A stretch of 64,000 bases of DNA. It comes from Candidatus Latescibacterota bacterium (lineage in GTDB: Bacteria > Latescibacterota > UBA2968 > UBA8231). Of this stretch, positions 5,601-13,678 are shown one piece after another (positions within the stretch are counted from its first letter, which is position 1; every line of letters begins with the position of its first letter). The notes under the pieces are model-generated. The model was given only the letters and a program-made list of their open reading frames with translations. It made no database searches and was not told the origin of the DNA. The stretch covers positions 1,984,001-2,048,000 of the forward strand of contig OZ241889.1 of assembly GCA_965203355.1 (NCBI GenBank), in the 5' to 3' direction. Made by a program: the position numbers and the translations under genes.

Positions 5601-7282
5601 CCTTTACGGCTCAAGCCTTCACCTCGGTGCAGAGCTATCTCAAGTTCTATCAGATCCCCCGCCCGAATGCGCCCAGCTACGAGGGGGCTCTGCTGCGCGA
5701 CCGGGGCTGGAAGGGCTTGCAGCTATCGGTGCTCGACTACGCGAAAAGCGCGTTTGGCAACCAAGCGCAGGTGCTGCCGAGGTCGTGGATTACTTCCAAG
5801 GTCATTGGCGAGCGGGCCTATATCGACATTGAACGCGAGCCAACGCAGAAGAAGAGTTTTGCCTCGGCGCTGCTCGGGGTGACGCCGGGCGAGGGGGCGC
5901 TGATGGGGCTGGAAGGGCTGTTGGTGGGGCCGGCGAGCCGCTGGTTTGCGGCAGATGAGCGCGACGTGTGTATCCTGCCGGTGGCTATGGCGGCGATCTT
6001 GGGCATTGGCCCGGCCGATGTGGGCACGGCCCAGATTGGGCTGATGGGACGGTCTTATCGAGTCATTGGCTTAATCGACGGCGAAGTCATCGACGGCCTG
6101 CGCGACTTGGACAACGAAAGCCCGATGCCGGTGGATACGGTCGCCGAGGCCAAGAAGATGGAGCAAATGGCCGACTTAGATCCGCGCCTGATGGACACGG
6201 CTGCGATTGAGACCTTTACCCATCTGCTGGCCAACAACGTGGCGTTTTTGCCCTACCAGCAGGTCGTCGATTTGGGCGGTACGCTGCGCTCCATTGCCAT
6301 CGCGGGCTTTGCCGATCGGGAGACCTTGCTCGCCGCGGTGGAGGAGTTTGTGTCGCGGGTGGCGGTGCCGCTTTTTGTCGGGGCCGACGACCGCGTGCGG
6401 GTGTACACGTCTATGGGATCGGCGTCCTTAGCCGGGATTGGCAATCTCTTTGTGCCCTTGTTGATTGCCTCGCTGATCGTGCTCAACACCATGCTCGGAG
6501 CCGTGTACGAGCGCGCTGGCGAGATCGGCGTGTACTCGTCGGTGGGGCTGGCCCCGAGCCACATTGCCGCGCTCTTCATCGCCGAGGCCCTCGTGTTTGC
6601 CATTGTCGGCGCGGTGTTGGGCTATTTGGTCGGGCAGACGACGACGCTGCTGCTGGCGCACTACGCGCTCTTGGGCGGGATGTTTCTCAATTACTCGTCG
6701 TTGTCGGCGATTTTCTCGACCTTGGTGGTGATGGTGGTAGTGGTGCTCTCGACCTTGTATCCAGCGCGCAAGGCCGCCAACATGGCCGTGCCCGACGTGA
6801 CGCGGCGCTGGGAGTTCCCGCCGCCCGATGGCGACGACTGGTGCTTTGATTTTCCCTTTACGCTGGGTAAGGGCGATGCCTTAGGCTCGTGCGCGTACCT
6901 GCATCGAGTTTTCTCGTCGTATGGCGAGGGATCGGTGGGCGACTTTATGACCGAGGGCGTGGATTTTCACTTGGAGCAGGGCGGCGCGCAGCCGGTCTAT
7001 CGGCTGGAACTGATGGTGTGGCTGGCGCCCTACGATTTGGGCGTGAGTCAGCGGGTGTGCTTGCGCACCTTGCCGACCGACGACATGCCGGGCATTTACC
7101 GCATTGAGATGCACTTGCAGCGCGTCAGCGGCGATGTGGTGAGCTGGCAGCGGCTCAATACCAGCTTCCTCAATGTGCTGCGCAAGCGCTTCTTGGTCTG
7201 GCGGACGATTGCGCCCGAGGTGCGGGAGGAATACTTGGCGGCGGGTGAGAAGTTGGCGGCGGGGATGGGGGTGGCGGTTTAG
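2675..7282 (+). CDS. Large membrane protein: N-terminal M28-like peptidase/PA region fused to a C-terminal FtsX/MacB-like ABC permease
   Basis: GSRVPGYAGE, AYYD...APGAENAAG (M28-like fold); SNLRKRKLRTALT and VYERAGEIGVYSSVGLAP (FtsX permease); several TM segments. Start at ATG 2675 preferred over TTG 2561. Confidence 0.75.
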   Translation: MAKPKLLNALFLLFAAAMIAVVGFGDPGAVNRAVNDFFGWAPNPPVEARMVEPAQAAALRALVADIDEAEIAAEIARFAAFGSRVPGYAGERQARDYVRQRFEALGLEDVQSEAFKVAVPIDRGGELVVQGGDSKRLYSLWPNSVRTPSLGPDGVRGPLIYGGQGALEALDGQRVEGSVVLLDFASGQNYLHAASLGAKAIVFFDNGGVNREQAADKFLKVPVDIPRFWLERQDALDLLARWRDGPVAVHLNARMDWEGVEAHNVYGYLPGSPEMLPAKSREKPQAWRDQTIVVQAYYDAISVVPALAPGAENAAGIVALLQLVELLKAYRPHYSVLFLATSGHFEGLSGINDFLYRHSRRSDYFRERMSEAERIDFDLMLSLDLSSHAAGTVSFGMGTFYNPKWRTDNYIKYMLTPYSKRLSLAVEETFGDTTRHYEGLAPPKRTWKNFMPIPLAFASEAAAFVGQKALALATANDARERIDTPLDLPEAVDAQNLTRQIQTLGAMVAWAGRDAALLKPTKLELEDYGHSLAGAIYWFDRDVNFAVPKKPVPQALVTYQQLGPNSVGGVRTLIAQEADDAGRFRFDIMRNRLSNAIRAYELSPHGEIISAPDLGQEGDETYPTVHPWGWWENEMLQVLFKCRALSLFETVDSRYLSVLDHVTVLDERDGVPQSWGADFVERQSHEESKVTLAAVVYAQPGTQVKALMSTSLFGVRYLLSGAPAAWVADPVRPADVDAATMKQALGRGYPVDRGVVLRPGYAAARDMWVLDDVRIKQLARYGVRNDKFMRLHEEARLALLEAEEHLQARRYSEFKRATRKAWGLEGRGYPDIKSTADDTVYGVIFYFALLLPFSFCCERLFFGFADIRRQVAGAAFFFLAIFLIMRVIHPAFKLSSSPYIIFLAFVIFAIGGTALLMILGRFTRAVGQRKRAAAGVHEADIGRLSATAAAASLGISNLRKRKLRTALTVVTLTLLTFTAQAFTSVQSYLKFYQIPRPNAPSYEGALLRDRGWKGLQLSVLDYAKSAFGNQAQVLPRSWITSKVIGERAYIDIEREPTQKKSFASALLGVTPGEGALMGLEGLLVGPASRWFAADERDVCILPVAMAAILGIGPADVGTAQIGLMGRSYRVIGLIDGEVIDGLRDLDNESPMPVDTVAEAKKMEQMADLDPRLMDTAAIETFTHLLANNVAFLPYQQVVDLGGTLRSIAIAGFADRETLLAAVEEFVSRVAVPLFVGADDRVRVYTSMGSASLAGIGNLFVPLLIASLIVLNTMLGAVYERAGEIGVYSSVGLAPSHIAALFIAEALVFAIVGAVLGYLVGQTTTLLLAHYALLGGMFLNYSSLSAIFSTLVVMVVVVLSTLYPARKAANMAVPDVTRRWEFPPPDGDDWCFDFPFTLGKGDALGSCAYLHRVFSSYGEGSVGDFMTEGVDFHLEQGGAQPVYRLELMVWLAPYDLGVSQRVCLRTLPTDDMPGIYRIEMHLQRVSGDVVSWQRLNTSFLNVLRKRFLVWRTIAPEVREEYLAAGEKLAAGMGVAV

Positions 7283-7312: not shown

Positions 7313-7747
7313 TCATTCCTCTTTTACAGTGCCCAATTGTACCGCTGGGTTCTCGGTTTTTTCTTTTGCGGCGGCGGTAGCGAGTTTTTGGTCGAAGGTC
7401 GCCAGCTTGGCCTTGCGGCGGATGGCTGTTTCTAAGTAGCTAGCATCGTATATAGTTAGGTCATGGCGTTGTGCAAGCTCCAAAACCGCCGTTTCGTCGT
7501 GTTCGTCGTCCACAGTGAACGAGAAATCTTGGGTAAGTTGAAGCAAGCAATCATTCAGGTCGCTTTGTTTGATTCGCCCCCTTTTCATCGCCATCAGTAG
7601 GACGTTGCGTACCTCATACCAGAAAATAGCTGGCGTCATACAGTCTCCGGCAGGTAAATTTTTCACTATTTCTTTGGCCGATTGATTGTGCTCTTCGTCT
7701 TTCAACAGAGCGGCAATCATCACTGATGCGTCGAGCACGGTAAGCAT
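7313..7747 (-). CDS. vapC: VapC-family PIN domain ribonuclease toxin
   Basis: MLTVLDAS...WYEVRN...TIYDASYL...LATFDQKL has the four acidic PIN residues. ATG at 7747 overlaps the res stop codon (TGATG). Confidence 0.9.
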   Translation of the reverse strand: MLTVLDASVMIAALLKDEEHNQSAKEIVKNLPAGDCMTPAIFWYEVRNVLLMAMKRGRIKQSDLNDCLLQLTQDFSFTVDDEHDETAVLELAQRHDLTIYDASYLETAIRRKAKLATFDQKLATAAAKEKTENPAVQLGTVKEE

Positions 7748-10590
7748 CAGCGTCTCCCCTCGTCTCTCCAAGCCCGTATCTCATCCTGTGTTACGGGATC
7801 CATTCTTCTGAGTCGCTCATTGGCAACCTTGAACGCTTGCGCCATGACTAGTTCTTGCAGCGTCGGGTGATGGTCCGAAAATTCTGACTGATTGATGCGC
7901 GTGTATTTCCAAGGCTTTCCAGTGATTTCGCTTACGCGTTTGCACCAGTCCCGTGCGGCGGCGTCCTTTTCGACAGTGCCTTCCCATACTCGGCCTTTGG
8001 TTTCGAGGATCCAATGCACTAGACCGTCCCGCGCCTTCTGCACAGCGATCCAGTCAGGATAGTAGAAGCCGATGGCCCCACTGGGCTTTAGGTAATCGAT
8101 GCGGAACACGGTTCCAGATGCGCCCTGTTCTGTCGTTCCAAGCGCGGCAAAGCTAAGGATGTCTTGGGCTTTGTCGAGGAATTCGGCAAAGCTGCGCTCA
8201 AAGGCGTTGTACGTGGCCACGAAGTTGAAGATGGTCTTTTTTGCTTCCAATGGCGGCAAGTTGCGCCGCCAGCTAAAGGCTTTTGTCAGGGATAGAAGAG
8301 CATTCTCATGCTCAAGTTCGACAGTACGCCGCTCAATGGTAAGCGTAGCGACCTCGCGGGCGATGTATTTGGCAATGCCCTCCTGCAATTCTAGTCGGGC
8401 CAGATGAGAGCGGACGGTTTCATCGGTCAGTTCGATTTTTCGCCCAAAACAACGGTTCACGACGTAGTCTTGCACAATCGGATACATCTCCGCAAAGCGG
8501 TTGGTCAGCTTAGCACGGTCAGCGGCTTTGTTGGCGATGCTCGCCAGAAGTTCTTGGGCGGGACGTGGCTCAACAGCAATGTCGGTTTGATGGACCTCGG
8601 TCTCCGTGGTAGTAAATTCCATCTTCAGACTGATTCGGAATGGTTCGGCTAGTTCTTCTTGATTGAAAATCGCTTCAAGCGAACACACATCCAAGGTGGA
8701 CAGCTTGCGGAAATTATGCTTTAGGTTCGGCTTGGTTATAGGCAGGGCAATGTCGTATTGAAGCCGTTCTTGCATGGGTTTGACGACGACTGGACGCGGC
8801 GGATTTTCCTTCGTGTCCATCACGCCAACGCCCTCGGCTTCGAGTTGTTCGCGCAGGACTTTGAGCAGGTTGCGCGTACCAAGTACCTCAAGCGTCTGCG
8901 TTTGGTCTGGGCTTACCTGTGCCATCAGGCGCAGGCCACGCCCGATCACCTGCTCCGGGAGTATTTCGGCTTTCGCGGTGAAAGGTCGCAGCCCAAGCAC
9001 AACCGTCACGTTGCGGACGTCCCAGCCTTCGCGCAGCATCATTACACTGACAATCGCCTTGATCTTGCTCGTGGCCTTGTCGATGTCTCGCGCTGCTTGT
9101 CGGGCTTTGTCAAGGTCTCCTTGCCGAACTTCTCCGGTATTGTCCGTGTGGATAACGAGTACCTCGGATTCCTTGAAGCCGAATGCCGGTGTTGTCCACA
9201 GGTATTTTCCCAAGGCGTCCGCATAGACATTTTTCTCGGCCATGATAAAGAGCACCGGCCTCGTGTTGAGCTGTTTGTAAACTGTCCAGTGTTCCTGCCA
9301 GCGTTGCACGGCAGCCTGCAACCAGTAGCTATACTTCTCTGCCACGTTTTCTTTTGTAATCCCGGCCGGATCTTCGTTTGGCTGATTCGGGTCGTCCGCC
9401 TTGGTTACGATGAGTGGTGCTTTGACGATTTTATCTTCTACGGCTTGGGCTAACGGGTAGTCCACGACCGTCCATGGGAAGTACATGCCGTTCTGGTCTT
9501 TTGGCGTGGCCGAAAAGTCGAGCCAAGCGCAGAGACCTTGCGGCAGCGTTTTGTGAATGGCTAATAATGATTTATTCCAAGCCAAGTCGTCTTGGTGGAC
9601 GTGATGCGCTTCGTCATTTAGCACGACGAGATCCTGCAAAGACTTCACACGCTCTAGCATGGAACGCTGGCTGGATGATGCGAGGTCTTTTTCGGGCTTC
9701 CGGCCTAAAAGGGCATCAACGGCGTTTGCCAGTATCCTCTCCTCGTCGCGAGATTCGTAGAGTTGGTGGATGTTGGAGAGGAACAAGTTCCCGGAGGGGG
9801 CCGGTTCGGGCGTCTCGCCGCGCAAGATCACCTTTTGCGCGAAGTGGCCTTTCCACTCAGGTGGAATCAGGGGCAACTCGTGGAATATGCGATTGTTGGC
9901 AAAGTCCTTTTCTAGCCGCTGATAGACGATCACGTTGGGGGCTACGATGAGAAAATTGGTGGAGAGTTCCGAGCCGGGGACGCGCTGCTTGTGGAAGCGG
10001 GACCAGACGATGGCCATGGCCATCACCCAAGTTTTACCCGAACCAGTGGCCATTTTGAAGGCGAAGCGGCGCAGGTTTTCGGGTGGAAGGTCCTGTTCGC
10101 CATCTCGGTTTAGTTCCGGCACATAACGGCGAATTTGCCGCTGACCGTTCATCGTGGTCTGAAATTCGATATTACTTGAGAATAAGTCTTTCTGAGTGAT
10201 TTTTCCGTATGTCTCGATGAGGGCCTTGACATCTCGCTGATTGGCGATCTCTACCAGCCACACCAGCGTCTCAATCGCTTCGCGTTGGCAAAAGTAATAG
10301 CGGAACGGCGCGTTAAATCCGCTGATTTCGTGGTCCTCGTCAAACCAATACTCAAACAAGCGGCGAGTGACTTCGGATGCACCTGTATAGTCACTGTCGC
10401 GCCAAGCATCTACTTTGTCGCGGATTTTCGGCACCAATAGGATATTGCTCGGGCGTCGGCCGGATGTATCCTCGCGCCAGCCGGAAGGTACGGCAGCATC
10501 TTTGACCAAGTGGGACGTGGGTCTTTCCCACGGACAGCGATCGCGGATTTCCGGCAGGTCCTGGTCGTAATTAATGACGGCTTGTGCCAT
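7747..10590 (-). CDS. res: Type III-like restriction endonuclease Res subunit (SF2 helicase + PD-(D/E)xK nuclease) with an antitoxin-like C-terminal tail
   Basis: MATGSGKT (Walker A), LNDEAHH (DEAH box), FSATP, MLREGWD, EQVIGRGLR, YYPDW...LETKG nuclease motif. Adjacent to a DNA methyltransferase. Confidence 0.9.
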   Translation of the reverse strand: MAQAVINYDQDLPEIRDRCPWERPTSHLVKDAAVPSGWREDTSGRRPSNILLVPKIRDKVDAWRDSDYTGASEVTRRLFEYWFDEDHEISGFNAPFRYYFCQREAIETLVWLVEIANQRDVKALIETYGKITQKDLFSSNIEFQTTMNGQRQIRRYVPELNRDGEQDLPPENLRRFAFKMATGSGKTWVMAMAIVWSRFHKQRVPGSELSTNFLIVAPNVIVYQRLEKDFANNRIFHELPLIPPEWKGHFAQKVILRGETPEPAPSGNLFLSNIHQLYESRDEERILANAVDALLGRKPEKDLASSSQRSMLERVKSLQDLVVLNDEAHHVHQDDLAWNKSLLAIHKTLPQGLCAWLDFSATPKDQNGMYFPWTVVDYPLAQAVEDKIVKAPLIVTKADDPNQPNEDPAGITKENVAEKYSYWLQAAVQRWQEHWTVYKQLNTRPVLFIMAEKNVYADALGKYLWTTPAFGFKESEVLVIHTDNTGEVRQGDLDKARQAARDIDKATSKIKAIVSVMMLREGWDVRNVTVVLGLRPFTAKAEILPEQVIGRGLRLMAQVSPDQTQTLEVLGTRNLLKVLREQLEAEGVGVMDTKENPPRPVVVKPMQERLQYDIALPITKPNLKHNFRKLSTLDVCSLEAIFNQEELAEPFRISLKMEFTTTETEVHQTDIAVEPRPAQELLASIANKAADRAKLTNRFAEMYPIVQDYVVNRCFGRKIELTDETVRSHLARLELQEGIAKYIAREVATLTIERRTVELEHENALLSLTKAFSWRRNLPPLEAKKTIFNFVATYNAFERSFAEFLDKAQDILSFAALGTTEQGASGTVFRIDYLKPSGAIGFYYPDWIAVQKARDGLVHWILETKGRVWEGTVEKDAAARDWCKRVSEITGKPWKYTRINQSEFSDHHPTLQELVMAQAFKVANERLRRMDPVTQDEIRAWRDEGRR

Positions 10591-10591
10591 G

Positions 10592-12442
10592 CTATTTCAC
10601 CTCCACGTCAAGAGCTTGCGAGGTATCGTTGCCGAAGATGTCGATTACCTTGACTAGCACTCGGTATTTGCCAGGTTGCCCGTATGTGTGGGGATCGGAA
10701 GCGAGCAGGAGGGTGCGGTTTTTGCGGGTGCGGTAGGAGACCCAGCCCTGCATGAAGGTGTCGTTTTGAAAGTCCCAGTCAACGGCCCAGTAGTCGATGT
10801 AGTCGGACCACTTCGCAACTTTGTCGCGCACTTCGTCGGGGATGAGTTCCGAGTTGGGGATGACGAAGTTTTGCAGTTTCACTTGCGCGGTGAGTTTCTG
10901 CGGTTTTTTGACCGTTGCCTTTAGATAAGCCAGCTCGAAGAAGCGGACATCGCCTTTAGCGGTCGCCTGTTCTTCCATGACTTCGCGGGGGATTTGCAAC
11001 AGCGAAAGGTTGACGCCTTTGTTTTTTGCTGCTGGCACCACGAGGTTTTGTAAGCCCATTTCCCATTCCCAGCCGAGGATATGCAGGTCTTTTTGCTTGA
11101 GCTTGGTGCATTCTTCCACGGCGTTGTCGATTTCGTCTAAGGTCACAGGCGCGTCTACTGCGCCGATGTGGATTAAGGCGCGGCCTTTTTTGCCGTGTAG
11201 ATGCGCTAGGCCCGAAAGCGGCTGTGCGCCGTAGAGTTTGAGGATGAAGGCGAGGTATTCGTAGAGTGCTTGCTCGGATGGCGGCTGATTTGCGTTACCA
11301 AACGTCACACCTTGCCAGTACTGGCGCTCGTATTTGCCGAGATTGAGAATCTCGAAGGGCTTGCAGTTTTCAATGCCGAGCAGACGCTTGCGGGTGACGT
11401 GGATGCCCCAGCGACCCAAGTCGCAGCCGATCCAGCGGCGGCCTAGTTTTTCGGCGACGGCGAGCGTGGTGCCAGAGCCGCAGAAGAAGTCGGCGACGAT
11501 ATCATTCGGGTTAGAGCATGTTTCGATGATTCTGCGAAGTAGAGCCTCTGGTTTCTGCGTTGGATAACCCGTTCTTTCGTTTCCAACGCCCGCGATGATG
11601 GAGATGTCCCATACGTCTCGAAGGGGTAGTCCTTTAGTAGGTTCATCAATTGTGATTTTTCTTGTTCTTGTTTCTGGATCAAGAATCTGCGTTTTCCCCC
11701 CGAATCTCTTTTCGTAGCTCTCCGATACATCTTCATATTGCTTATGGAATCGGTGCTCCTGATGTTTAGAGGTTTTGCGATAAAACAGTATATCGTCGTG
11801 CATTTTCTGAAATACTGATTGAGTACCTGGCCATCTCTTATAGCTCCATATTATATGGTTGCAGAATTGGCTTGAGCCCATGATCTCGTCCATTATTTGA
11901 CGAACCGTGGCCGATGTCGTTGAGTCCAAGTGAACAAACATTGAGCCATGTGGTGCAAGTAGTTCTCTCATTATCATAACGCGAGAAGAAATCATGCTGA
12001 AAAATGAAGAAAGTCCTTTTCCCCACGTATCCCTGTACGCCTTTTCTTCAATTATAGATTGTTCCTTTGGAATTTTTTCATTTGACTCTCCAATCTGAGC
12101 CATAAACGAAAAATCCGCTCCTGTCGCAAAAGGCGGGTCTATGTAGATCAGGTCAATTTTCCCAGCGAATTTTTCTAGCAACGAACTCATCACCAGCAGG
12201 TTGTCGCCCCAAACGAGCTTGTTCTTCCAGCCATCTTCAAAGGTGTCGCCTTCATTACCTTCGTACATGTCGAATAGTGACAATCCTTTAGTTTTTTGTA
12301 CCTCGCGCGTGGCGCGGCTTTCATTGACCGTCTCAATCACTTGAAAAGGCAGATTAACTCGCGGAACCTCCCTGAGTGTACCATCCTCGTCGTACTTGCC
12401 GGGCCATACTAGTTCCGTCTTGGTGATGTCGATTTTTGCCAT
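10592..12442 (-). CDS. mod: Adenine-specific DNA methyltransferase (Mod subunit, beta class)
   Basis: YIDPPF catalytic motif precedes YPTQKPEALL and DFFCGSGTT (SAM-binding). 1-nt gap to res. Confidence 0.92.
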   Translation of the reverse strand: MAKIDITKTELVWPGKYDEDGTLREVPRVNLPFQVIETVNESRATREVQKTKGLSLFDMYEGNEGDTFEDGWKNKLVWGDNLLVMSSLLEKFAGKIDLIYIDPPFATGADFSFMAQIGESNEKIPKEQSIIEEKAYRDTWGKGLSSFFSMISSRVMIMRELLAPHGSMFVHLDSTTSATVRQIMDEIMGSSQFCNHIIWSYKRWPGTQSVFQKMHDDILFYRKTSKHQEHRFHKQYEDVSESYEKRFGGKTQILDPETRTRKITIDEPTKGLPLRDVWDISIIAGVGNERTGYPTQKPEALLRRIIETCSNPNDIVADFFCGSGTTLAVAEKLGRRWIGCDLGRWGIHVTRKRLLGIENCKPFEILNLGKYERQYWQGVTFGNANQPPSEQALYEYLAFILKLYGAQPLSGLAHLHGKKGRALIHIGAVDAPVTLDEIDNAVEECTKLKQKDLHILGWEWEMGLQNLVVPAAKNKGVNLSLLQIPREVMEEQATAKGDVRFFELAYLKATVKKPQKLTAQVKLQNFVIPNSELIPDEVRDKVAKWSDYIDYWAVDWDFQNDTFMQGWVSYRTRKNRTLLLASDPHTYGQPGKYRVLVKVIDIFGNDTSQALDVEVK

Positions 12443-12549: not shown

Positions 12550-13239
12550 TCATAATAGCCCGGCCTTGCTAAAACTGAAAGTCTGCGACTCCGACACGAT
12601 CAGGTGGTCGGCAACCCGCAAGCCAATGGTTTCGGCGGCGAGCACGATAGCACGCGTGACCAGTTTGTCTTGCTCGCTCGGCTCGACGTTGCCGTTTGGA
12701 TGGTTATGCGCGAGTACAAGGGCCGCCGCTTGGCGTTTGAGCGCGGCTTCTACGACGCGGCGTGGATACACCGCTGCGCGATCAATTGTACCTTCCTGAA
12801 GCATTTCGACGCCATTGTGAAGTAGCCGATATGCCGAGTCGAGGTACGCCACGGCAAATACTTCGTGCTTGAGGTGGCCGATCTGCATACGCCAGAAGTT
12901 ACTGATCCGCTCCGGGTCACTCAGCACTTCCGCTTCTTCTGATACTTCCTGCAAGTAGCGCGTCGCCGCTCCGCGGATGACCTTTAGGGAGATCGCGGTG
13001 ACCTCGCCGATACCCTTGACTGACCGCAATTCGGCTAGGGGCGCGTCCAAAATCCCTCGCAGACTGCCGAAGCGATTGAGCAGGGCCTTGGCTTGTTGCT
13101 TCACGTCCGAGCGAGGGATGGCCAAGGTCAATAGCAATTCAACGACCTCGTGTTCGGCGAATCCGTCAAAGCCGCTCTTGAGGAAGCGATCGCGGAGCCG
13201 CTTGCGGTGCCCGTGGTAGTGCGGTTCAATCTTCGCCAT
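12550..13239 (-). CDS. radC: RadC-family JAB/MPN protein
   Basis: GHRKRLRDRF N-terminus, HhH motif VKGIG, VYPRRVV, AHNHPNG..PSEQD, DHLIV. Confidence 0.93.
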   Translation of the reverse strand: MAKIEPHYHGHRKRLRDRFLKSGFDGFAEHEVVELLLTLAIPRSDVKQQAKALLNRFGSLRGILDAPLAELRSVKGIGEVTAISLKVIRGAATRYLQEVSEEAEVLSDPERISNFWRMQIGHLKHEVFAVAYLDSAYRLLHNGVEMLQEGTIDRAAVYPRRVVEAALKRQAAALVLAHNHPNGNVEPSEQDKLVTRAIVLAAETIGLRVADHLIVSESQTFSFSKAGLL

Positions 13240-13678
13240 TATCCTGCTCTTTAGATTTGTTCAAACATTCGCGCCCGGCTGTCGTCAGGCGATAGCGTTG
13301 CTTGCTGCTGCGCGGCTTGTCGGGAATCGTCATTTCGATTAGACCGGCTTGCAGGGCGGGGAGCAGGTAGGTTGCTCGGAAATGATCCTCGTGCTTCAAG
13401 TTGAGAGCGTCTTGGATTTGTCGTCTGCTCATTTCGCCTGACATTACATCTAGCAGACGCACTTCCCCGGTAACTTCCCCGGTAACTTCCCCGGTAACTT
13501 TCCCGGTAACTTGATCTTCTAGTTCCCGCACTTCGGGATCCGGCCGAAAAATAACGACGAAAAATGCTCCCCGGACCTTGAATTCCGGTTCTGGGCAACC
13601 TTGTTCCCGCGCTTCGTCCCGAATACGGCGGATGCCAGTGCCTTGCTGGATGAGCATATCAAGATCCGCAGATTTCAT
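13226..13678 (-). pseudogene. Internally deleted AlbA_2/HATPase (RecG-C-like) regulator retaining a Fic-like C-terminal wHTH
   Basis: N-terminus MKSADLDMLIQQG resembles the start of AlbA_2 proteins but joins directly to GTGIRRI..PEPEF (end of the HATPase_c_4 region). It continues with a VTGE linker and HFRATYLLPAL..IEMTIPDKPRSSKQRYRLT. Confidence 0.6.
13461..13512. repeat. 12-bp tandem repeat ACTTCCCCGGTA x4.3 (encodes the VTGE/VTGK linker)
   Basis: Directly visible; one mismatch in the fourth unit. Confidence 0.95.

Follow-up and report, generated by a model that had tools for sequence, protein, structure and literature searches.

A type III-like restriction enzyme whose C-terminal tail probably serves as antitoxin to the VapC toxin encoded directly behind it

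How can a gene for a VapC toxin stand without an antitoxin gene on either side? This question is raised by a mod-res-vapC locus in the window, the stretch of 64,000 nucleotides analyzed here (contig OZ241889.1, positions 1,984,001 to 2,048,000, from a Candidatus Latescibacterota bacterium). Genes for a type III DNA methyltransferase (Mod), a type III-like restriction subunit (Res), and a PIN-domain toxin (VapC) form a tight three-gene operon arrangement on its minus strand. An earlier note on this DNA had proposed that Res is itself the antitoxin, and the proposal gained ground in our analysis: the end of Res is homologous to the ends of free antitoxins, co-occurs strictly with VapC, appears to have had a single origin followed by long retention, and belongs to a locus in which the toxin gene decays first. 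On this sequence evidence, Res is probably a covalently tethered antitoxin of VapC.

The res gene (7747..10590, minus strand; 947 amino acids (aa) plus stop, fused tail included) and vapC (7313..7747, minus strand; 144 aa plus stop) meet in a TGATG stop/start overlap (7745..7749, minus strand), in which the res stop TGA (7749-7747) and the vapC ATG (7747-7745) share one base, an A. This overlap had been recognized before, with the start of vapC placed at 7750, and the correct start is 7747. The same TGATG was found at 11 of the 12 tail-bearing loci of the same phylum that were read, and TGATA at the twelfth. Among the open reading frames (ORFs) of the window, no separate antitoxin gene lies beside vapC, as had also been stated: res is upstream, and 30 bases beyond vapC, at 7282, lies the end of a convergent gene for a 1573-aa protein with PA, peptidase M28, and FtsX-like domains. 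A scan for promoters and terminators returned fewer sites than did shuffled sequences, and none near the res-vapC junction. VapC itself consists of a PIN domain alone (Pfam PF01850, E 3.5e-18) and matches no PADLOC family; its nearest solved relative in a PDB profile search is PAE0151 (2fe1, E 7.8e-16), a toxin-only structure. The acidic PIN site, previously described as intact, is complete (D6, E45, D101, and D119) and invariant across 46 aligned relatives. VapC is thus predicted to be a PIN-domain toxin with intact catalytic residues.

Where, then, does a Res protein normally end? The match to the NCBIfam restriction-endonuclease profile stops at residue 900 (profile position 957 of 970), and the nearest tail-less Res end, in an alignment, at positions equal to residues ~914–927, which bears out the earlier view that Res continues past its nuclease domain. 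In a tail-less set of 80 metagenome loci (the best 80 of 583) and 77 IMG/VR loci, with Res relatives of 24–75% identity, the tail was absent from all 157 Res loci. The final 32–34 residues of Res are thus an addition to the enzyme. This tail (residues 914–947; 7750..7851, minus strand) is predicted to form a helix, a short turn, and a second helix before a terminal EGRR; positions 7845-7750 encode its final 32 residues, MAQAFKVANERLRRMDPVTQDEIRAWRDEGRR, and the tail starts within a few residues of an in-frame ATG (Met) at 7845. It has no NCBIfam match, and its one Pfam match (DUF4936, E 0.089) is at chance level.

The tail is a trait of a whole family. A search with Res residues 740–947 returned 1191 proteins (E ≤ 0.001), and we inspected the best 120 of these 1191, which are 59–100% identical over that region and mostly 945–953 aa long. 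The extension is present in 119 of the 120, the exception (P0073) stopping short. The window's own subtype reads ...M.PVTQ.EIR.W[KR][DE]EGR., a second subtype reads ...MSREEVRQARDEGRA, and a third reads ...SHEEFLQWRDEGRR, often with four to six residues more. In a FastTree phylogeny of Res residues 1–905, from which the tail had been removed to keep it from driving the grouping, all 37 sampled tail-bearers fall into one clade (Shimodaira–Hasegawa-like support 96) nested among 34 tail-less Res, with L012/L022/L111, L017/L113, and L013 as nearest neighbors. As far as the sampled proteins go, this indicates that the tail was gained once and then diverged for a long time. The pairwise ratio of non-synonymous to synonymous substitution rates (dN/dS) is 0.14–0.36 for the tail, where computable, and 0.04–0.24 for the nuclease region before it; by this estimate the tail is shown to be under purifying selection.

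Could the fusion nonetheless have been created by assembly, or be a one-off scar, as the earlier note had allowed? Neither was found. Contigs of relatives from two other studies span the junction without insertions or deletions (records 7 and 15), and since 119 of the 120 relatives also keep the tail, an assembly artefact is excluded. The contig of record 15 stems from an RNA library (X9); it may nonetheless derive from DNA, and it is no proof of a single transcript. For the strain of the window, an independent study with identical sequence (run X4) gave no contig bridging 7752-7763, which neither confirms nor contradicts the junction.

We next asked where the tail came from. Relatives of VapC with 28–38% identity are encoded in gammaproteobacterial metagenome-assembled genomes (L005, L006) and at loci of the same phylum (L195, L196, L198, L199, L200), each with a small antitoxin gene upstream. 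Of five such antitoxins scanned with Pfam, three have an N-terminal PhdYeFM domain (L196, L198, L005), one a FitA-like ribbon-helix-helix domain (L199), and one no assigned family (L200). The ends of these proteins are more uniform: ...[ST]I[RK]E.I[ED]EGR. closes seven of eight free antitoxins, the eighth, L007, lacking it. A full HMMER search with the L196 antitoxin yielded 3045 relatives (E ≤ 0.001), and 103 of the best 150 of these carry EG[RK] within their last nine residues, so that antitoxin endings are indeed as the earlier note described them. Some of these endings are nearly identical to the tail, such as that of P0269, ...TQAEIREWREEGRR.

Profile comparisons connect the two groups directly. 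A hidden Markov model (HMM) of the last 36 residues of 110 free antitoxins matches 79 of the 120 tail-bearing Res (best score 18.4 bits) and none of 207 long ORFs from tail-less loci, and all eight top matches printed sit at the very C-terminus of Res. In hhalign, tail columns 26–62 align with antitoxin columns 50–84 of 84 (probability 87.1%, E 4e-6, 35 columns), and the aligned antitoxin part is everything past the DNA-binding domain, end to end. The full-length antitoxin HMM scores only 4–7 bits on the tails. No Pfam antitoxin domain was recognized in the last 57 residues of Res, and a word-based search of small proteins with the same residues returned nothing; the word-based method is too insensitive for so short a tail, and the homology was seen only with profiles. 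With these comparisons we show the tail to be homologous, at the sequence level, to the C-termini of free antitoxins, a kinship that had been suspected beforehand. We consider it likely that the neutralizing C-terminal segment of a Phd/YefM-type VapB antitoxin was grafted in frame onto Res and that its DNA-binding half was lost.

The terminal E-G-R codons deserve separate mention. In the window they contain GAGGGGAG (7754..7761, minus strand), a Shine-Dalgarno-like run 6 bases before the vapC ATG, and at L005, L006, and L195–L200, as in the window, these codons are purine-rich (GA[AG]GG) and lie a few bases before the toxin start. The run may double as a protein motif and a ribosome-binding site. 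In free antitoxin genes the E-G-R codons vary between loci, which argues that the motif is kept at the protein level.

If the tail is an antitoxin segment, it should travel with the toxin. A VapC profile that matched 14 of 14 positive-control loci had no match among 5,439 ORFs in the tail-less set of 157 loci, 154 of which hold a complete Res, 137 of these 154 with at least 450 nt of downstream sequence. A vapC gene or its remnant lies directly behind res at every tail-bearing locus for which DNA was read (12 loci of the same phylum, the window, and L002). At the loci read, Res homologs with no vapC or remnant of it lack the tail, and the fusion recurs among the best relatives, both in keeping with the earlier proposal. 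The remaining relatives were approached by a proxy, in which Res and VapC clusters are paired by identical longest-contig size: 14 of the 120 listed Res clusters pair in this way with a listed close VapC cluster (52–63% identity; best 120 of 543 VapC matches listed), and a fifteenth pair was found separately. The subgroup around P0042/P0043/P0046, the first to branch in the tail clade, is among these pairs, and tail and VapC have therefore probably been paired since the tail arose. Across the loci with DNA read, the tail occurs only with VapC or its remnant.

The decay of the locus offers a further view of the pair. When 167 genomes of one phylum were searched with the Res C-terminus, 17 matched. 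Res and VapC are both intact at five syntenic loci (the window, G001, G140, G051, and G053). At three others Res is intact and vapC is broken by three different lesions, namely the loss of 4 bp within a TGCT repeat (G105), a deletion after codon 4–5 (G145), and insertion of a DUF772 transposase (G062). Both genes are broken at seven (G132, G056, G057, G049, G055, G002, and G003), with one lesion common to G057 and G049. A broken Res with an intact vapC was found at none of the syntenic loci. Res is ~6.5 times longer than vapC, so independent neutral decay would give the opposite bias; if loss of the Res C-terminus would free VapC, vapC is expected to go first. We regard this toxin-first order as supporting evidence for Res as the antitoxin and not as proof, given a small sample of related genomes.

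Individual loci illustrate this decay. At L096:2422-3417 a DUF772 transposase gene sits inside vapC after about codon 39, and the adjoining res is intact. On two complete chromosomes of the phylum (L003:1579-4204 and L004:1724-4138) mod is intact beside fragments of res and vapC, which leaves an orphan methyltransferase at both loci; at L003, one chimeric ORF runs from a piece of Res into VapC's C-terminal half. G002 and G003 keep an intact mod and have lost res and vapC.

How might a tail of this kind hold a toxin? According to PMC5389673, VapB antitoxins lay a helix against the flank of the toxin's PIN domain, and an extended end inserts Arg residues with acidic neighbors into the active site. 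An AlphaFold2 model of the last 207 Res residues (mean predicted local distance difference test score (pLDDT) 74.9) places helices at 911–929 and 935–943 (block pLDDT 74–89) and leaves the EGRR end free after the second; this modeled arrangement fits the known VapB layout. We propose that VapC would be made by coupled translation directly after each Res chain and that the Res tail would bind it and hold the RNase inactive. In the manner of solved VapBC pairs, the tail helix would lie along the flank of the PIN domain, and the closing R-D-E-G-R-R would extend into the acidic active site. As no repressor domain is present, the module would be expressed with the restriction-modification (R-M) operon. 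Removal of the Res C-terminus while VapC persists would leave a free RNase and lead to arrest or death of the cell, and possible routes to such release include loss or truncation of res, proteolysis, and perhaps a phage factor acting on Res. By this mechanism res would be hard to lose (addiction), and VapC could be a second line once restriction is disabled. Only tentatively do we extend the proposal to a guard, in which VapC stays silent while Res is whole and is freed by an anti-restriction factor, a protease, or loss of res to bring about abortive infection or killing; this extension is possible and on balance doubtful.

One complex prediction speaks weakly for Res as the antitoxin, and several observations weigh against it. 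In this single prediction, made for VapC and Res residues 901–947 (both supplied as alignments) with three controls, the pair scored 0.51 (runs 0.50–0.53) and the best control 0.00, a result returned as 'weak support' and with no interface given; the score expresses the confidence of a model. Among solved complexes 58 of 80 reach the mark used, and among mismatched pairs 2 of 110 do; at a score of 0.60 or under only 7 of the 80 solved complexes reach it, together with both passing mismatches. Between runs, at least 91% of contacts coincide, and partner pLDDT is at least 69. A sequence search found no solved complex of this antitoxin type, the antitoxin matches covering the N-terminal domain only, which makes recall of a known structure a less likely source of the prediction. 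Three genomes carry a tail-bearing Res without a working VapC, so either the tail can be needed even after the toxin is gone or vapC was lost there only recently. Classical antitoxins are labile, and we saw no sign that the tail on this 105-kDa enzyme is turned over. The Shine-Dalgarno-like run formed by the E-G codons for vapC could explain part of the conservation at the end of Res. Finally, the tail-bearing loci with DNA read all belong to the subtype ...PVTQ.EIR.W[KR][DE]EGR., and all but one of them are syntenic within one phylum, which makes the counts of loci interdependent; the subtypes ...EEVRQARDEGRA and ...EEFLQWRDEGRREW.. had no size-paired VapC among the best 120 of 543 matches.

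Other explanations of the same locus have to be weighed against these results. VapC could be a working accessory subunit, with the tail as a docking peptide that recruits and gates the RNase, which would act on invader transcripts once Res engages unmodified DNA. This would account equally for the homologous tail, the strict co-occurrence, the putative coupled translation, and the intact PIN site, and it might have a parallel in distant Res proteins whose extensions give a faint lead to RnlA/LS-type HEPN RNases. However, the tail derives from a segment that inhibits VapC and ends in an Arg/acidic motif of the kind that blocks the active site in solved pairs, decay of the toxin first is predicted more by a dangerous protein than by a helpful subunit, and the HEPN lead stays below 0.95 and lacks Pfam support; we regard an accessory role as improbable. 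The fusion could also be a neutral scar, left by a deletion that joined res to a neighboring vapB, with VapC being harmless or neutralized in trans. Deletions that fuse reading frames do occur at the locus, as the chimeric ORF of L003 illustrates, the fusion must have started as one, and free VapBC pairs with the same antitoxin ending exist in related genomes (G017, G045, G097). Yet a scar would hardly be kept in frame by 119 of 120 best relatives across wide divergence from one origin, with dN/dS below 0.4 in the tail and invariant catalytic residues in VapC. Neutralization in trans also finds no candidate: when G001, the stand-in for the genome of the window, was searched with the tail, nothing but the tail of Res came up at E ≤ 10, and the four genomes with an intact locus (G001, G140, G051, and G053) have one VapC match apiece. 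A neutral scar is, in our judgment, very unlikely.

The earlier note had further suggested that the internal ATG might yield a stand-alone 32-aa antitoxin, in which case the continuity of the tail with Res would be incidental. The in-frame ATG (7845-7843) does lie 1–3 residues from the point at which tail-less Res end. This Met is nevertheless confined to the closest subgroup of the window: the position is W in five of eight aligned sequences of the same phylum and is taken by other residues in most of the 120 relatives. There is no Shine-Dalgarno-like run before the ATG and no promoter-like site nearby, and a separate gene would have no need of the reading frame that the tail shares with Res in 119 of 120 relatives. 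This suggestion finds no support, and we give a separate peptide scarcely any credence. The reading of Res as a tethered antitoxin is the one that we carry forward.

The restriction-modification genes themselves are readily recognized. The Mod protein (616 aa; 10592..12442, minus strand) matches Pfam N6_N4_Mtase (E 2.5e-48) and, practically from end to end, PADLOC MTase_III (E 8.4e-126; residues 6–610 on profile positions 17–613 of 616), and its stop codon lies 1 base ahead of the res ATG. Res matches PADLOC REase_III (E 1.4e-16) and the NCBIfam BPTD_3080-family restriction endonuclease (E 4.6e-89, under the equivalog cut-off). Its superfamily 2 (SF2) helicase/ATPase core (residues 152–364; 9499..10137, minus strand) is matched by Pfam ResIII (E 7.1e-18), and the GSGKT and NDEAHH motifs are invariant in a 26-sequence alignment. 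The same alignment shows invariant P845, D846, E863, T864, and K865 in a putative PD-(D/E)xK-type endonuclease region (residues ~785–900; 7891..8238, minus strand), for which the Pfam RE_endonuc match is weak (E 0.048); in a PDB fold search with the C-terminal model, the best plausible matches were TnsA-type nucleases (probability 0.84–0.92, none with E ≤ 0.001). The locus thus has what marks a type III R-M system, that is, a Mod methyltransferase upstream of res and a Res with SF2 helicase/ATPase motifs. When Mod of the window (10592-12442) is compared with that of the syntenic L003:1579-3459, both ends are ~95% identical and residues ~143–297 only ~30%, a mosaic that looks like an exchange of the target-recognition region. 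Directly upstream of mod are two ORFs (12550-13678), one for a RadC-like JAB protein of 229 aa. The other, of 150 aa, combines a Fic-like C-terminal domain, a HATPase_c_4 end, and a short VTGE repeat, and looks like the remnant of a larger regulator.

Distant members of the Res family carry extensions of another kind. Five tail-less Res of 31–33% identity have C-terminal extensions of 214–240 aa that match nothing in Pfam (L076:5647-6351, L078:5743-6384, L079:4168-4839, L082:5644-6363, and L089:5273-5956). All five share [FI]RN..VAH in their end regions, a sequence that we take to resemble the Rx4-6H motif of HEPN RNases, and the ESM Atlas offers no more than a lead to RnlA-toxin_DBD and HEPN_RnaseLS clusters (0.91 and 0.88). 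An RNase module may here have been coupled to the Res family a second time, independently.

Searches beyond the close relatives helped to outline where the tail occurs. IMG/VR contained tail-less Res relatives only, the metagenome scan gave only tail-less loci among the best 80 of 583, a plasmid search for Res relatives returned two distant matches, and the ESM Atlas held only generic type III endonuclease clusters. One other phylum yielded no match at all in 401 sampled genomes, and in another, again with 401 sampled genomes, the sole tail-bearer was G168, on a 2.7-kb contig that is perhaps mis-binned. L002 is a whole contig of 2660 bases binned as Chloroflexota; it shares 80–90% protein identity with the other phylum's locus, a further tail-bearer was absent from 401 sampled genomes of the phylum to which it is assigned, and the assignment is probably due to mis-binning. 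Taxonomic labels also conflict at G051 (L097), whose VapC is apparently the same, over the 100 alignment columns shown, as the protein P0136, labeled Gemmatimonadota by one source.

What would such an arrangement mean? Toxin–antitoxin (TA) modules and R-M systems are often adjacent, but physical links between the two have seldom been established. Here the missing antitoxin can probably be placed in the last 32–34 residues of Res, in at least 119 protein clusters of apparently one origin, which would provide a concrete design for a defense gene that is hard to lose or that is backed by a suicide RNase. The neutralizing end of an antitoxin would be a portable module, movable between DNA-binding domains and even onto an unrelated enzyme. 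For annotators, 'orphan' toxins may become recognizable by an antidote hidden in the end of a neighboring large gene. If the guard extension were true, this would be the first restriction enzyme found with a covalently fused antitoxin, and a whole clade of them, and a PrrC-like logic would have arisen along another path. The possibly RNase-like extensions seen in other Res hint, in addition, at repeated coupling of RNases within the Res family.

Taken singly, the type III R-M system, the toxin VapC, and the VapB ending of the Phd type are all known, and we did not find their arrangement described: the full-text literature searched, with subscription-only papers and supplements outside it, contained no case of a restriction subunit with an antitoxin segment fused to it. 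With ordinary type III R-M enzymes the locus shares the mod-res order, the full-length Mod match, the ResIII helicase, and the putative nuclease motif, but those enzymes, including the nearest ones (L017, L111, and L113, 73–75% identity), have neither tail nor vapC. With canonical VapBC modules (the free pairs L196, L198, L199, and L005) it shares the VapC/PIN subfamily (35–38% identity), the stop/start coupling, and a C-terminal segment of the toxin-neutralizing type, as judged from hhalign and the HMM. In those modules, however, the antitoxin is a separate DNA-binding protein, whereas here the segment makes up the C-terminal 32–34 residues of a 947-aa Res, is expressed from the mod-res operon, and corresponds to only the part after the PhdYeFM domain. 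Because both the separate antitoxin gene and the DNA-binding domain are missing, the locus is no plain type II VapBC pair, and mod-res-vapC would have no autoregulating repressor. It would function as such a pair does, with Res as the bearer of the antitoxin.

The closest precedents lie among RNases associated with restriction enzymes. PrrC, according to PMC1484252 and PMC2610378, is an RNase encoded in an R-M locus that is latent with EcoprrI and freed when a phage factor inhibits the enzyme. The likeness to mod-res-vapC is one of logic and not of family, since PrrC is an ABC-ATPase plus anticodon nuclease (ACNase) protein held non-covalently by a type Ic partner, with no antitoxin-derived motif, whereas here a PIN domain is paired with a type III-like Res. 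Genes for PIN-like proteins that are transcriptionally coupled to subunits of type I R-M systems, sometimes without antitoxins, are described by Matelska et al. 2017 (PMC5499597), where a direct TA–RM interaction was stated as not yet shown and where Supplementary Figure S7 may list further cases. Those cases are type I and come with no identified substitute for the antitoxin, whereas at mod-res-vapC the antitoxin can probably be located, as the tail of Res.

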